In this document: piece after piece, positions 26,780 to 58,350 of the stretch | Layout: each line of letters starts with the position of its first letter | How positions within the stretch are numbered: the first letter of the stretch is position 1 | Sequence record: MK327931.1 | From: Escherichia phage vB_EcoM_G17 | DNA: 64,000 bases | Reading direction: 5' to 3' (one strand) | Translations under genes and position numbers: made by a program | Notes under the pieces: model-generated | Database searches by the model: none | The model's input: the letters and a program-made list of their open reading frames with translations, nothing else | Told to the model about the DNA's origin: nothing

Positions 26780-27331
26780 CTATAGATAACTAATTAGTAA
26801 GTTTTCTTTTTGAACCAGATACTCCAATTCTTGTTTTGCTGTACCGATGAAGTTCTGTGTCATAAGATTATTATATCCCGCTTCTCGATTTTGTCCCTTA
26901 GAATAACGAGAAATATGACATAAATTTACACCAGCAACTTCTGCACTTGCATGTTTAGCATTAGTGTATCCATCTCTAATGTGTTTCAACTCGTCATAGG
27001 TTACTTCATAGCTAAAACTGTGACTGTTTGCACCTGGGTAAATTTCAAAAGTTTTGAGTGGTCGAAGATGGGAAACAAAAATATTGTAATCCATTTCTTC
27101 TTGAACTTCACGACGCAACGCATCTTCTAGTGAGATATCAGTACTTTCTACGGTTCCACCACATCCACCAAGAAGACCATCCCATCGTAATTGCAGTAAT
27201 ACTAAATTTACTTCTGGTATATCATTCAACTCATAGTTTTTGTAAGGGTTGCATTTTCTTGCAAAGAAATAACAAAATACAAAATTTGCACGTGTGCCAT
27301 ATTCACCAAAGGGAACTTCTTTAACACTCAT
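26780..27331 (-). CDS. Nudix hydrolase
   Basis: Nudix box GGCGGTVESTDISLEDALRREVQEEMDY (Gx5Ex7REUxEExGU pattern). Confidence 0.75.
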   Translation of the reverse strand: MSVKEVPFGEYGTRANFVFCYFFARKCNPYKNYELNDIPEVNLVLLQLRWDGLLGGCGGTVESTDISLEDALRREVQEEMDYNIFVSHLRPLKTFEIYPGANSHSFSYEVTYDELKHIRDGYTNAKHASAEVAGVNLCHISRYSKGQNREAGYNNLMTQNFIGTAKQELEYLVQKENLLISYL

Positions 27332-28086
27332 TTCATACGTTCCTTAATTATAGTCTCTAGATGCGGTATTGCTTTGGTTGCTGGCTTGATAACTTTTTCA
27401 TTAAACAAAAAATCATTATCATTTTTACGAATGTTAACATTAACACTATAACATGGTAATGCTGCTGCTAATCTCGACCATACCAGTACTGTATCGCTAC
27501 TACCAATTACAATAACTGTATCATTTTCATTAAGAGATTTCAACACATTATTTCGTTCTTCGTAAATTGGTAAGCGAATACCATCAACATAACGATGATA
27601 TTCTCCAATCATTACTACATTTGGTTTAGCAAAAACATCATGTTTTGGTATGTATGGTTCGTATCCGCAGTTAATAACATTATAATCATCGGAATTGATA
27701 CTATAATTTTCAATAACTTCGCACAAGTTTCCATGAAGTTTAAGCTCATGACCACCAATACGAGTATAAAGATCGTCCATGTTAGAAGTCATATGAAGGA
27801 AGCAATCACCATATTGATCTTCTAACGATTTTATAAAATAATGCATTGCATTCGGTTCGCATTGTCCCAATTTTACACGTAATGTATTATAGAAAGAATG
27901 AACAACATGATATTTTGTAGTTAAACTAGCAATGTTACATACATCATTAATTTTAAATGTATCCCACAAACCATCATCAAATCGAAAAGGTTCCATACCA
28001 CTTTCAACAGAAAGTCCTGCACCTGATATAATCAGTAATCGCTTTTTACCTTCATTGCTTATAAATTTTTCTGATATCATATTCAA
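27328..28086 (-). CDS. Sir2-family (sirtuin-like) NAD-dependent enzyme
   Basis: Rossmann motif ISGAGLSVESGMEPFR and TSNMDDLYTRIGGHELKLHG, matching sirtuin GAGIS...GIPxFR and TQNIDxLH...LHG. Confidence 0.75.
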   Translation of the reverse strand: MNMISEKFISNEGKKRLLIISGAGLSVESGMEPFRFDDGLWDTFKINDVCNIASLTTKYHVVHSFYNTLRVKLGQCEPNAMHYFIKSLEDQYGDCFLHMTSNMDDLYTRIGGHELKLHGNLCEVIENYSINSDDYNVINCGYEPYIPKHDVFAKPNVVMIGEYHRYVDGIRLPIYEERNNVLKSLNENDTVIVIGSSDTVLVWSRLAAALPCYSVNVNIRKNDNDFLFNEKVIKPATKAIPHLETIIKERMK

Positions 28087-51983: not shown

Positions 51984-52598
51984 TTATTCATCGTCGTCAT
52001 CGTCATCTAGATCGATATAGATACTATCATCACCATCATCAAAGTACTCCACAATAACTCCTGGAATATTAAGGGCAGTAAACATTGCATCATATTTCTC
52101 ATCAGATGGAATCAAAACAAATTCGTCAATGTTTTGAACTTCTGGCATTTTATCTTCGGGGATACCCATATCAACAAGTGACTGAATAATCTTTTCTTTG
52201 AATTCTAAAAACTTCTCTTCAGATTCAAAATCCATAATAAGCTGTGCAACATATCCTTCATCGTTACCGAATGAAATTGACATTTGTGCATCAGTACCGA
52301 CATAGCACCAAACACGTTTACCTGTGTGCTGCTCAATAAAGTTTTGAATCTGTAACACAATGTCATGGCGAGAACTGTTAGCAATGTTGTTAAGATTTTC
52401 TACACCAGCATTAATTCCAGTACTGTCATTTGTTTCTTCAAATTCACCATAATCACCCAATACATACTGTACACCTTCATGATGTAATGCATATGCATAG
52501 TCAAGGTCAGCGAGTGAATCGCACTTTCCACGGATCGGACGTAGGGAAAGACCTAAGCGAAGATAACGGAAGTATGTATTAGTATTTGTATTTGTCAA
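51984..52598 (-). CDS. acidic protein with poly-Asp C-terminus
   Basis: Start set at TTG (AAGGAG SD 7 nt upstream) after upstream gene stop; C-terminus YFDDGDDSIYIDLDDDDDDE. Confidence 0.45.
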   Translation of the reverse strand: MTNTNTNTYFRYLRLGLSLRPIRGKCDSLADLDYAYALHHEGVQYVLGDYGEFEETNDSTGINAGVENLNNIANSSRHDIVLQIQNFIEQHTGKRVWCYVGTDAQMSISFGNDEGYVAQLIMDFESEEKFLEFKEKIIQSLVDMGIPEDKMPEVQNIDEFVLIPSDEKYDAMFTALNIPGVIVEYFDDGDDSIYIDLDDDDDDE

Positions 52599-52878
52599 CG
52601 TAATGCTCCTTAACAATATAAAAGTAGTTGCTGTTATTGTCAAAAAAGATAACCATCCCTTTATAGACATTTACACCAATTTTGATTTCACATATGTTAT
52701 TTGATTTACTCGCTTCAGTCAATAACATTTTGTGCTCTTTACTGAAAGTGTGGAACAGTGGTTTGACATGCCACATTTCGATACCATCCAGTACTGAAAA
52801 TTTTTCACTAAATTTAATCATTGATTCTTGTAAAAAATATCCTGTAAGATTTATTTCATCACACATGCAAGTTTCCAA
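52579..52878 (-). CDS. hypothetical protein
   Basis: 99-aa ORF. Confidence 0.45.
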   Translation of the reverse strand: METCMCDEINLTGYFLQESMIKFSEKFSVLDGIEMWHVKPLFHTFSKEHKMLLTEASKSNNICEIKIGVNVYKGMVIFFDNNSNYFYIVKEHYVDKYKY

Positions 52879-53152
52879 GAAAATTAATCACATCTGCATG
52901 TGATAATGTATCATTACCTTCTAGTACATTAATGATAAACGGCACTTGACGATATAGTTCAGCCAGGAATTGTACCTCATCAGATGTGTAAGAATATCCC
53001 ATAGGAACAACCTGTGCAGTCCAGTTTCCTAGAGTTTTGTTAGCAATAATTGCAACTACAGTATTACCTTTGTATTCAACATGGATGGAACGAAATCCTG
53101 ATTGCTCATTTTGATCCCAAAGTACTGGATTGGTTTTGAACAGTACTGACAT
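52859..53152 (-). CDS. hypothetical protein
   Basis: 97-aa ORF. Confidence 0.45.
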   Translation of the reverse strand: MSVLFKTNPVLWDQNEQSGFRSIHVEYKGNTVVAIIANKTLGNWTAQVVPMGYSYTSDEVQFLAELYRQVPFIINVLEGNDTLSHADVINFLGNLHV

Positions 53153-53154
53153 AA

Positions 53155-53688
53155 TTATTTCCTCATGTATTTTATAACGTCTTCAAATAATTGTATTTTT
53201 AAGTCCTCGTCATTTCCAGGTAAAAACTCACGAAAACTATCAAAATCTTCATTTTTTGCGAAGTTACGCATTTGTGTTGAGCTATATTGACTTACATTAC
53301 GGTCAATACCTGCCTGAATTGCTTTTATACTACAAAAATTATACAACTTACCATTGTACATGTCAAGAGTTTTTTGAAAAGAATCAATACGGTCAGAACC
53401 ACAAATGAAAAGAACATCTAAGTACTTTCCATCCAGTTCTCTCATTATATCAAATAGATTGTCTTCTGTGTAGATGTTCTCTTGCACTGAAGGATAGAAT
53501 CCCTCTGTATAATACATTTTTAGTTCAGGTGGGAGTGGGTTTTTTATATTGTCAGTACTGGTGCTTAGATATATTTTTAAATCAGCATTGTACTGTTCTT
53601 GTAATGTTTTGGCCTTTTCAAAAACTAAACCATGTCCACGATGTACAGGATTAATACGACCAAACGTTAATACACATGTTTCTTTCAT
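53155..53688 (-). CDS. HxGH-type nucleotidyltransferase (cytidylyltransferase superfamily; NMN adenylyltransferase- or PPAT-like)
   Basis: N-terminal FGRINPVHRGH (HxGH) and downstream SSTQMR (ISSTxxR-like). Confidence 0.65.
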   Translation of the reverse strand: MKETCVLTFGRINPVHRGHGLVFEKAKTLQEQYNADLKIYLSTSTDNIKNPLPPELKMYYTEGFYPSVQENIYTEDNLFDIMRELDGKYLDVLFICGSDRIDSFQKTLDMYNGKLYNFCSIKAIQAGIDRNVSQYSSTQMRNFAKNEDFDSFREFLPGNDEDLKIQLFEDVIKYMRK

Positions 53689-54206
53689 AAATTCTTCATC
53701 ACCAATCCGAGAGATTTAAGATAATTAATTTTAGCAGTGGTTAAGTACTTATCCAGTACTATCAGACACGAAGGAAATGGTGCTGAATCTGTTTTCTTAT
53801 CGGGTTCTTCTGGTATACCAAATCGTAATCTTCCCTTAATAAAACAAATACAATCACATATTTTAGCAGCATAATCCTGAAAAGCAATTGTGTCGGTTCT
53901 TGAGGGTACAAGAATAACTACAGTTGCCCCGTTATTATATGCATCTACTGCTTTAGATAACCAAGTTTTCAAATCACTGTATGGTGGATTCAACCAAACT
54001 ATATTATTTCCCCAATCCTGTGATAGTGAATCATCTTCTGGAGTGAAAAAATTATCACACAATGCAGTCTCATCAACACAAGCAGCATCAAGTGTAAATC
54101 CCCATAACTCATCCAAATCTTCAAAGAAATCTTTGGGAGTTGTCCAGTTATCTTTTCCAGTACTGAAATGTACTGAATGTTTTTTCGAAGCATCCTTCTT
54201 CGACAT
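53685..54206 (-). CDS. DNA N6-adenine methyltransferase (phage Dam-like family)
   Basis: Catalytic NPPYS motif with WTTP, LDAA and TVVILVPSRTDT context. Confidence 0.7.
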   Translation of the reverse strand: MSKKDASKKHSVHFSTGKDNWTTPKDFFEDLDELWGFTLDAACVDETALCDNFFTPEDDSLSQDWGNNIVWLNPPYSDLKTWLSKAVDAYNNGATVVILVPSRTDTIAFQDYAAKICDCICFIKGRLRFGIPEEPDKKTDSAPFPSCLIVLDKYLTTAKINYLKSLGLVMKNL

Positions 54207-54222
54207 TATATAATTCCTTTTG

Positions 54223-54843
54223 TTAGAGACAGTTGTGTACTATCTTATCAAAAGTACTACTGTCAATGTTATATTCATATAAAAATTTAAAATGTGAACC
54301 GTAACGCATCATCAGATTAAACTCTTCTTCAGTATTGAACTTGTAATCATGAATAGTCTCAGGGGTACATTTTAAACCCAAGAACTCTATAATTTCAGAT
54401 GTTACATCATATCCTGAATTGAAGTATTTAACCCAAACACATTTTCCTTGTGGGTTGTATTTTCTATATTCTCCTTCTAGTTCTCCTTTAATAATATGAG
54501 CCTTAACACTTATTGAATTATTACTATATCTTTCTTCAAAATAATTACCATACTGGGCTTTTGATATTGTTGGTTTTTGAGTAGGAAGTAATTTAACTGA
54601 AGTTACTTCAATTCCATTTTGTAATTCCTTTATATAAGAAATGCATCCTTTTTCTTTAATAACCACATATCCAGTAAAGATATCTTCGTCTTGTGATTGA
54701 TTAATGCAATCATCAAAATTCAAAGTTTTATAAGTAACAGTTTTTTCTTTTCTAATAAATGCCATCATTATTCCTATGGAAACATCAATGAATATACGTG
54801 ACGTTGATTGCATCAACATCAGTAGAATTATCATGCTACGCAT
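54223..54843 (-). CDS. hypothetical protein (true start probably an internal Met)
   Basis: 206-aa ORF with Met-rich hydrophobic N-terminal extension. Confidence 0.5.
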   Translation of the reverse strand: MRSMIILLMLMQSTSRIFIDVSIGIMMAFIRKEKTVTYKTLNFDDCINQSQDEDIFTGYVVIKEKGCISYIKELQNGIEVTSVKLLPTQKPTISKAQYGNYFEERYSNNSISVKAHIIKGELEGEYRKYNPQGKCVWVKYFNSGYDVTSEIIEFLGLKCTPETIHDYKFNTEEEFNLMMRYGSHFKFLYEYNIDSSTFDKIVHNCL

Positions 54844-57479: not shown

Positions 57480-58328
57480 TTATAATGTTTCTTTTATGTT
57501 ATGTAACATAGTATTAACTATGCACATCTTACCACCTAACTTGTAGTAATATTCTAACTTATTAATAATATTACTTTTTAATATATCAAATATTTGATAT
57601 TCATTTGGATCGAAACTAAGTTCGAATTGGAATGTATATAAATTGTTAAAGAGGTGAACTAATGATGCATCTGGTGATTCCATTGTAACTGTATATTTTT
57701 CACGATAACCAGTACTAATCACTACTTCGGATATATCACCTTTCATGTATATGTCAATATTGTACATCATTGGTCTGCCTGTGGCAATATCTTTCATGCG
57801 AAAGAATGCAGTACTACGATATACAATGCCTTCTGAAACCTGTTCTTGTATAGTGATATTTGAAACTTCACTCTCTTGGAATTTGGACTCGAATGAATGA
57901 GTGTAATTTGTTTTTTCATTATCCGTGTGCATAGTACATGTGTATTTTCCAAAATCATCTCTAGATGTATATGATTTATCACTGCTAGTTTTATAGAACG
58001 AAACACCATTAATATGTTGTTCTTTATACATCATCGTGTCATGGGATTTGTAGTATGAACAATTAGGTGTTGAAAGAGATTCAAACTTGTTCACGTCATG
58101 ACAGTAAGAAATAGAAGAATCGCTATACATTACTACATCACGAATTGCAACTTCTTTTGTAAAACCTTTTTTGACGGAAATTTGAAAGTCATTGTATGGG
58201 AAGATTGTATATCCATCGTATGCATCTGATGTACTGATACCAAATGGTGTAGTAGAATTCAGAAATTCGTTGATATGTTCAAGTACTGAATACTTTTTAA
58301 AATTAAGAAAATCTGAAATATCTAACAT
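57480..58328 (-). CDS. hypothetical protein
   Basis: Track start is TTG at 58334; ATG two codons in has GAGGA SD 8 nt upstream. Confidence 0.55.
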   Translation of the reverse strand: MLDISDFLNFKKYSVLEHINEFLNSTTPFGISTSDAYDGYTIFPYNDFQISVKKGFTKEVAIRDVVMYSDSSISYCHDVNKFESLSTPNCSYYKSHDTMMYKEQHINGVSFYKTSSDKSYTSRDDFGKYTCTMHTDNEKTNYTHSFESKFQESEVSNITIQEQVSEGIVYRSTAFFRMKDIATGRPMMYNIDIYMKGDISEVVISTGYREKYTVTMESPDASLVHLFNNLYTFQFELSFDPNEYQIFDILKSNIINKLEYYYKLGGKMCIVNTMLHNIKETL

Positions 58329-58350
58329 ATACAATCCTCATAAATTTAGA

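Follow-up and report, generated by a model that had tools for sequence, protein, structure and literature searches.

A Dam-family methyltransferase gene overlapping a HIGH-signature nucleotidyltransferase gene in an Asteriusvirus genome, with no support for a role in NAD salvage

The gene pair

We analyzed a stretch of 64,000 nucleotides from Escherichia phage vB_EcoM_G17 (MK327931.1), hereafter the window, concentrating on two adjacent open reading frames (ORFs) of the minus strand that code for a Dam-family DNA adenine methyltransferase and for a small nucleotidyltransferase (NTase) with the HIGH signature. Sequence comparison gave 100% identity between the window and Escherichia phage Sharanji (OR545507.1), window position 52000 corresponding to position 323630 of that record. 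Sharanji is an Asteriusvirus, from the group of 121Q, PBECO4 and phAPEC6 among the RaK2-like jumbo phages. The pair comprises the following features:

53685..54206, minus strand: upstream gene, a Dam-family (PF05869 / phage N6A) DNA adenine methyltransferase of 173 amino acids (Pfam, PHROG and NCBIfam matches; annotation of Sharanji and 121Q)
53979..53990, minus strand: codons of the catalytic motif NPPY, methyltransferase residues 73-76 (sequence motif)
53155..53688, minus strand: downstream gene, a single-domain HIGH-signature NTase of 177 amino acids (phrog_3041 match and motifs)
53632..53643, minus strand: HRGH, the (H/T)xGH nucleotide-binding motif, NTase residues 16-19 (motif; H19 is invariant in four family alignments)
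53266..53283, minus strand: SSTQMR, the SxTxxR motif, NTase residues 136-141 (motif; S136 and R141 are invariant)
53685..53688, minus strand: ATGA, in which the TGA stop of the methyltransferase overlaps the ATG start of the NTase (read from the sequence)

The two ORFs have exactly the limits given in a preliminary description of this DNA, which also recognized their superfamilies (an HxGH/SxTxxR nucleotidyltransferase and a Dam-family N6-adenine methyltransferase) and the overlap of a stop with a start codon. However, it reversed the gene order: the methyltransferase gene lies upstream, and it is its stop, not its start, that overlaps the start of the NTase gene, the coding strand at the junction reading …GTG ATG AAG AAT TTA TGA AAG….

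Both genes are real, already annotated and ordinary. Sharanji carries them as gp542, 'DNA N-6-adenine-methyltransferase', and gp541, 'hypothetical protein', and 121Q as gp417, 'DNA methyltransferase', and gp418, 'cytidyltransferase'; the same pair is annotated in PBECO4 and phAPEC6. Several GenBank records name the NTase 'ribonucleotide reductase A', apparently by transitive annotation, and it is elsewhere called a phosphopantetheine adenylyltransferase (PPAT) or a cytidyltransferase (the records concerned are 121Q KM507819.1, Ecwhy_1, fEgEco12, 7t3 and S-MbCM25/100).

A small methyltransferase of the T1 Dam type

The methyltransferase matches the Pfam family Dam (PF05869) with an E-value of 7.4e-32 and 110.8 bits against a gathering threshold of 28.1, as well as phrog_111 (7e-57), and it contains the (D/N)PPY motif of amino-methyltransferases in the form NPPY. 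It scores 91.5 bits with TIGR01712, 'phage N-6-adenine-methyltransferase', narrowly under the equivalog cut-off of 97.05. A tblastn search places the family in 2125 phage records, T1-like and Stx phages among them; the nearest relatives outside the RaK2-like phages belong to phages of Staphylococcus, Lactococcus, Acinetobacter and Bacillus, at 39-47% identity. The enzyme of the window therefore shares with the T1 Dam / M.EcoVT2Dam-type methyltransferases (PF05869, TIGR01712) the Pfam family, a size of about 170 amino acids, the NPPY motif and the status of an orphan phage-encoded enzyme, but it is only ~30-35% identical to the T1-like and Stx-phage enzymes, over 60-85% of the length, and falls just below the NCBIfam equivalog cut-off. 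A further family member, phrog_33262, has its Dam domain fused to a domain resembling 3'-phosphoadenosine-5'-phosphosulfate (PAPS) reductase.

M.EcoT1Dam and a 35%-identical relative, M.Btr190III, methylate GATC, the relative also having off-target activity (PMC4996451), and M.EcoVT2Dam is GATC-specific (PMC6602927). By analogy with these characterized relatives, GATC or a GATC-like sequence would be the default guess for the site of the window enzyme. DNA of the Asteriusvirus fEgEco12 gives digests that match in-silico patterns with ten enzymes, among them EcoRI and HindIII, which are sensitive to N6-methyladenine; ScaI and GTAC cutters were not among the ten (PMC13070987). As EcoRI and HindIII cut this DNA normally, the enzyme is therefore likely to be site-specific rather than a promiscuous adenine methylase. 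RaK2 DNA was described by its authors (data not shown) as cut by methylation-insensitive enzymes only; of the two candidate methylases that they named, one is RaK2 gp447, the orthologue of the window methyltransferase (PMC3622015). A literature search found no methylome data for these phages.

Non-specific adenine methylases of the Hia5 type were also considered as possible PF05869 members. This idea was dropped, as the paper on Hia5 relates it to EcoKDam, DpnM and T4Dam and does not place it in this family (PMC3299994).

A distinct branch of HIGH-signature nucleotidyltransferases

The downstream protein matches phrog_3041, 'cytidyltransferase', with an E-value of 8.5e-58. Its score with the Pfam family CTP_transf_like (PF01467) is 17.3 bits, for a gathering score of 21, and 60 out of 80 homologues pass E≤0.001 with this model; it also reaches 17.3 bits with Pfam FAD_syn, and no curated family is matched. 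It is a member of the HIGH-signature superfamily, as it combines the (H/T)xGH motif and the SxTxxR motif with a Rossmann-like fold: an AlphaFold2 model (mean predicted local distance difference test score, pLDDT, 86.9) displays the Rossmann-like HIGH-nucleotidyltransferase fold. Residues G10, R11, P14, H19, N50, R100, Y111, N112, R130, S136 and R141 are invariant across the clade.

A Foldseek search of the model against the PDB returned PPATs as the 17 best matches, yet with E-values of ~1e-4, template-modelling (TM) scores of ~0.6 and ~15% identity. The family profile searched against PDB sequences matched Helicobacter pylori PPAT over its full length (7.6e-6), whereas the matches to MJ0541, a nicotinamide mononucleotide (NMN) adenylyltransferase (NMNAT), and to NadM (4e-4 and 7.8e-3, respectively) cover the first 60-70 residues only. 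A single-sequence phmmer search against the PDB gave no match, and no PPAT model appeared at E≤0.1 in the NCBIfam search. The NTase is a distinct branch of the superfamily, by structure equidistant from PPAT and NMNAT, and sequence and fold assign it no substrate.

The form SxTxxR occurs in adenylyltransferases (PPAT, NadD, NMNAT), and cytidylyltransferases have the form RTEGISTT. Since the motif of the NTase is of the adenylyltransferase type, it most likely moves adenosine monophosphate (AMP) from adenosine triphosphate (ATP) to a phosphorylated acceptor with release of pyrophosphate. The label 'cytidyltransferase' is a superfamily name only.

Distribution and genomic partners of the nucleotidyltransferase

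An exhaustive HMMER search at E≤0.001 gave 3419 representative clusters of NTase homologues, and in many of these the protein measures 500-1200 amino acids and has the domain at the N-terminus. By tblastn it is present in 565 phage records, about 460 of which are Synechococcus/Prochlorococcus myoviruses where it bears the label 'cytitidyltransferase', the remainder including RaK2-like jumbo phages and PA5oct-like phages. The cyanomyovirus protein (phrog_3041 / phrog_395; Syn9 gp184, P-SSM4 PSSM4_155) belongs to the same clade, with 31-39% identity over the full domain and the same invariant residues. However, the cyanophage and marine-virus enzyme is usually extended or fused (375-1060 amino acids) and follows a gene coding for a DUF6267 protein, whereas the window protein is the bare 177-residue domain. 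The fusion proteins of 500-1200 amino acids in marine and T4-like viruses have basic low-complexity linkers, their partner domains include DUF5824, Pol-beta NTase and kinases of the AAA_33/Zeta-toxin type, and one contains a zincin-like HEWMH motif.

We surveyed the neighbours of the NTase at 80 IMG/VR loci outside the RaK2-like clade, whose homologues have 31-39% identity; this is also the set of 80 homologues mentioned above. A standalone NTase (177-198 amino acids) is found at only about 8 of these loci, the other proteins measuring 375-1060 amino acids. Among the two upstream ORFs of each locus (150 ORFs), the Pfam families are DUF6267 (39), AAA_33 (16), AAA_17 (12), Zeta_toxin (12) and ADK (5), and a hidden Markov model search places DUF6267 within 4 kilobases (kb) of the NTase at 62 of the 80 loci. 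Domains fused to the NTase are DUF5824 (29/80), Pol-beta-type NTase (6), P-loop kinases (5) and DUF6267 (1). No DNA methylase family is among the 25 most frequent upstream Pfam families, no family of the NAPRTase/Nampt, SIR2, Nudix or PnuC kind recurs beside the NTase, and no CoaE (dephospho-CoA kinase) family is found among neighbours or fusions; downstream neighbours are uninformative. Among cyanophage and related records, S-RIM8, S-RSM4 and Melnitz have DUF6267 directly upstream of the NTase and no methylase.

DUF6267, which is absent from the Asteriusvirus genome, has invariant residues K-W-D-G near position 51, Q-G-D near 120, E-G-x-V (EGYV) near 369 and K-x-V near 381. We see in them a likeness to four motifs (I, III, IV and V) of ligases and capping enzymes, the covalent nucleotidyltransferases. 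A ligase identity was not retained, as it was suggested by the motifs alone: a profile search against the PDB gave nothing significant, hhalign comparisons with the DNA ligase and RNA ligase 1 of the window were not significant, and the AlphaFold2 model is poor (pLDDT 59), having been built from sequences of at least 84% identity only. Were DUF6267 a ligase, the module would usually consist of ligase, kinase and HIGH NTase and would point to nucleic-acid end processing or to recycling of a ligase product, in which case an NMNAT-like role is kept as a minority hypothesis. No publication on 'cytitidyltransferase', DUF6267 or DUF5824 was found in a literature search. The clade shared by cyanomyoviruses and RaK2-like jumbo phages is large (more than 3000 clusters) and uncharacterized. 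DUF6267, P-loop kinases, DUF5824 and Pol-beta NTase recur as its partners and form a testable module.

NAD salvage

The preliminary description had proposed that the NTase might be an NMNAT and that, together with Nudix and Sir2 genes, it would belong to a phage pathway for salvage of nicotinamide adenine dinucleotide (NAD). We find such a role unsupported. The NTase scores 19.8 bits with TIGR00482, the NadD/NMNAT equivalog model, for a cut-off of 112.45, and 15.3 bits with NF000840, for a cut-off of 150; in both cases the HxGH region alone aligns. Nor does homology to CBB_113, the NadM-type NMNAT NatV of phage CBB, extend over the full length, the hhalign alignment of the family profile covering 60 N-terminal columns with a probability of 75%.

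The genomic context of the orthologues points the same way. The CBB orthologue (gp073) adjoins the Dam gene (gp072) at 34 kb; a bifunctional NadM-Nudix NMNAT (CBB_113), Nampt (CBB_115) and Sir2 (CBB_120) are located at 55-61 kb (PMC5259590). Using CBB_115 and CBB_113 as tblastn queries, we identified both NadV (Nampt) and NatV (NadM-Nudix) in RaK2, K64-1, Muenster, Munch, 7t3, EJP2, GAP32, XaC1, Hallingskeid and others, all of which possess the small NTase too. In RaK2 the latter lies at 281.5 kb and the genes for NatV and NadV occupy 305-309 kb; in the sister phages the NTase is 21-26 kb from NatV/NadV, so that it shows no genomic association with an NAD-salvage module.

The absence of a Nampt-like gene from the window was confirmed. 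To cover the rest of an Asteriusvirus genome, we used the complete 352-kb genome of ECO103 4-12-1, whose Dam and NTase have 93-95% amino-acid identity to those of the window: in tblastn searches Nampt had no match at E≤10 and NatV none stronger than E=5, and Sir2, Nudix, Dam and NTase were all found. The Nudix and Sir2 genes invoked alongside the NTase do exist in the window, where the Nudt16-like Nudix gene (26780..27331) overlaps Sir2 (27328..28086) near PhoH, but they are 26 kb away from the gene pair. The Asteriusvirus genome examined has lost the canonical NadV/NatV salvage pair of the RaK2-like relatives checked and has kept Sir2, and nothing marks the small NTase as a replacement.

Junction and synteny

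The pair is flanked by two small genes:

54223..54843, minus strand: 206-residue protein of unknown function (g206, phrog_16210), upstream neighbour of Dam, syntenic in Asteriusvirus, RaK2, CBB and XaC1
52859..53152, minus strand: 97-residue protein of unknown function (g97, phrog_14956), downstream neighbour of the NTase, syntenic in RaK2 and CBB

Asteriusvirus, RaK2 and CBB share the gene order g206-Dam-NTase-g97-…-g228 as a collinear block, and the adjacency of Dam and NTase is therefore explained by descent. The junction itself is variable. The ATGA overlap is kept in RaK2, a 21-nucleotide spacer separates the two genes in CBB, and four small genes lie between them in XaC1. In ECO103 4-12-1, the exact point where Dam and NTase meet (~53688 in the window) carries an inserted gene for a 257-residue phrog_681 endonuclease, apparently of the homing type, with both flanking genes intact; EC22.5-2, which matches the window in the same two pieces, probably carries this insertion too. 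Such an overlap is also common in the window: according to crude gene calls, the same 4-nucleotide overlap is found at 18 of 103 minus-strand junctions and an overlap of any length at 37. The stop/start overlap is thus neither conserved nor unusual, and the meaningful translational coupling of the pair that had been suggested finds no backing here. Nothing found ties the NTase to the methylase.

Oligonucleotide signatures

The enrichment of the palindrome AGTACT, for which the methyltransferase had been considered as a possible writer, is real: the window contains 180 copies for 21.9 expected from base composition (~8-fold). They are distributed evenly; 165 of the 180 are inside ORFs, in all three frames (80/53/32), and some lie near or within the gene pair (e.g. 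53124, 53145, 53553, 53742, 53755 and 54159). Their flanks are biased toward CAGTACTG, which itself occurs 43 times for 0.6 expected. Enrichment is 7.7-fold in the whole ECO103 4-12-1 genome, 8-15-fold in samples of RaK2, CBB and XaC1, and about 5-15-fold over the RaK2-like phages taken together (Asteriusvirus, RaK2, CBB and XaC1), all of which have the gene pair. The PA5oct-like phage PAC2, which has the NTase and no adjacent Dam, shows none in a sample of 6.5 kb. This co-distribution is compatible with the methylase as a possible writer; its basis is clade membership together with a single small outgroup sample. A mere methylation target would not be expected to be enriched.

A second signature concerns GCGC, which is wholly absent from the window (~47-49 copies expected) and from 359 kb of ECO103 4-12-1 (~299 expected). 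The samples of RaK2, CBB and XaC1 lack it as well, and the PAC2 sample has 11 copies for 7 expected; depletion is much milder for other GC-rich 4-mers. This extreme signature of the clade, with AGTACT up about 8-fold and not one GCGC in 359 kb, is not yet accounted for by any gene in the region.

Interpretation

We consider it probable that the locus holds two independently acting and vertically inherited genes, a Dam-type methyltransferase and an orphan-clade HIGH NTase, in a collinear block of RaK2-like jumbo phages, and that their overlap is a matter of compact packing. The upstream gene would code for a small T1-Dam-like (PF05869) S-adenosylmethionine-dependent N6-adenine DNA methyltransferase; its target is most likely a short specific sequence in phage DNA that is being replicated, and its likely role is in anti-restriction or epigenetic marking. 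The downstream gene would code for a minimal member of a virus-specific and uncharacterized clade of HIGH-signature NTases, presumably distinct from a canonical NAD-salvage NMNAT of the phage. Genes in this genome are typically packed this compactly; the ATGA overlap may permit re-initiation, and it gives no sign of a shared pathway. The analysis itself establishes the gene identities, the fold, the distribution, the synteny and the lack of Nampt and NatV, whereas the transfer of an adenylyl instead of a cytidylyl group, the site of the methylase and the independent action of the two genes are inferred.

Several observations weigh against this reading. The N-terminal pattern GRxxPxHxGH…KNP(L/F) of the NTase is common to archaeal and NadM-type NMNATs. 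Dam and NTase are still neighbours over the distance between Asteriusvirus and CBB, which corresponds to 40% amino-acid identity. Methylase genes are found near the NTase in two unrelated cyanophages, P-TIM68 having an N6_N4_Mtase directly upstream and ACG-2014f Eco57I-like and D12 methylases 1-2 kb upstream; this is a mild hint of association, but the methylases belong to three unrelated families. Finally, GATC is depleted about 2-fold in the window (91 copies for 197-221 expected) despite the presence of a Dam-family gene, with a ratio of 0.54 genome-wide in ECO103 4-12-1, which protection by methylation alone would not predict.

The alternatives concern either the substrate of the NTase or a common action of the two enzymes. 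The NTase could be an adenylyltransferase of NMN or nicotinic acid mononucleotide that regenerates NAD+ and thereby supplies Sir2, recycles NMN from the NAD-dependent host ligase or counters NAD-depleting defences. We regard this as unlikely, given that its scores with the curated NMNAT and NadD models fall far below the cut-offs, that the best full-length match is a PPAT, that the orthologues coexist in every sister genus with true NatV and NadV from which they lie far away, that none of the NAD-related families recurs beside the 80 homologues, and that the ligase assignment of DUF6267 is without statistical support. Beyond the restriction of the similarity to about 60 N-terminal residues, the NTase differs from NadM/NatV-type and archaeal NMNATs in having no Nudix fusion and no link to Nampt. 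A PPAT-like enzyme making dephospho-CoA, which would boost coenzyme A for a phage acyl-carrier-protein (ACP) pathway, appears very improbable. The NTase does share with PPAT (CoaD) the minimal HIGH-NTase fold and size and a KNP(M/L) motif, and PPAT gives its best full-length profile and structure match. However, such values of identity and TM score represent superfamily-level similarity only, no curated PPAT model matches, there is no CoaE partner, and the ACP-like gene of the window is 51 kb from the NTase.

Dam and the NTase might instead act jointly on DNA, for instance in a two-step hypermodification of adenine or in the marking of the enriched AGTACT, with the overlap as a functional unit. 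Their conserved adjacency across RaK2-like genera speaks for this, as do the distribution of AGTACT enrichment over phages with and without the pair, the methylases beside the NTase in two cyanophages, the fusion of Dam with a PAPS-reductase-like domain in phrog_33262, and the reported resistance of RaK2 DNA to many restriction enzymes (PMC3622015). Nevertheless, the synteny of the whole block accounts for the adjacency, the pair is split in XaC1 and ECO103 4-12-1, no DNA methylase family recurs beside the 80 homologues, the cyanophage methylases are of mixed families, fEgEco12 DNA digests as predicted, and the PAC2 sample is very small; we would therefore give joint action only the slightest chance. 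A more specific version, to which we likewise attach very little credence, would have Dam and the HIGH NTase form a two-enzyme DNA-marking system of RaK2-like jumbo phages that marks the GTAC core within (C)AGTACT(G) with either plain or hypermodified adenine, the palindrome being the sequence enriched 5-15-fold in exactly the sampled phages that have the pair. If this were true, the enriched palindrome would be a dense self-identity or protein-binding signal.

The pair itself matters little, being already annotated and having a proposed link to NAD salvage that does not hold up. The side observations are more interesting: an uncharacterized NTase clade with its partners, the loss of NadV/NatV from an Asteriusvirus genome that keeps Sir2, and the oligonucleotide signature of the clade.

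Other features of the window

Promoter, terminator and Rfam scans of the region gave nothing bearing on the gene pair. A perfect sigma-70 consensus (TTGACA, 17 nucleotides, TATAAT; 12/12) is present within the NTase ORF on the minus strand (53338-53366), directed at the downstream gene for the 97-residue protein. The minus-strand gene at 57480-58334 (WNN14829.1) is called a 'methyltransferase' in the Sharanji paper and has no Pfam or PHROG methyltransferase match, its sole PHROG match being phrog_27741 (function unknown). The ACP-like gene is also on the minus strand, at about 1580-2000; it matches phrog_5934 and phrog_4154 with E-values of 1e-7 to 3e-6 and is annotated as an ACP in phAPEC6.

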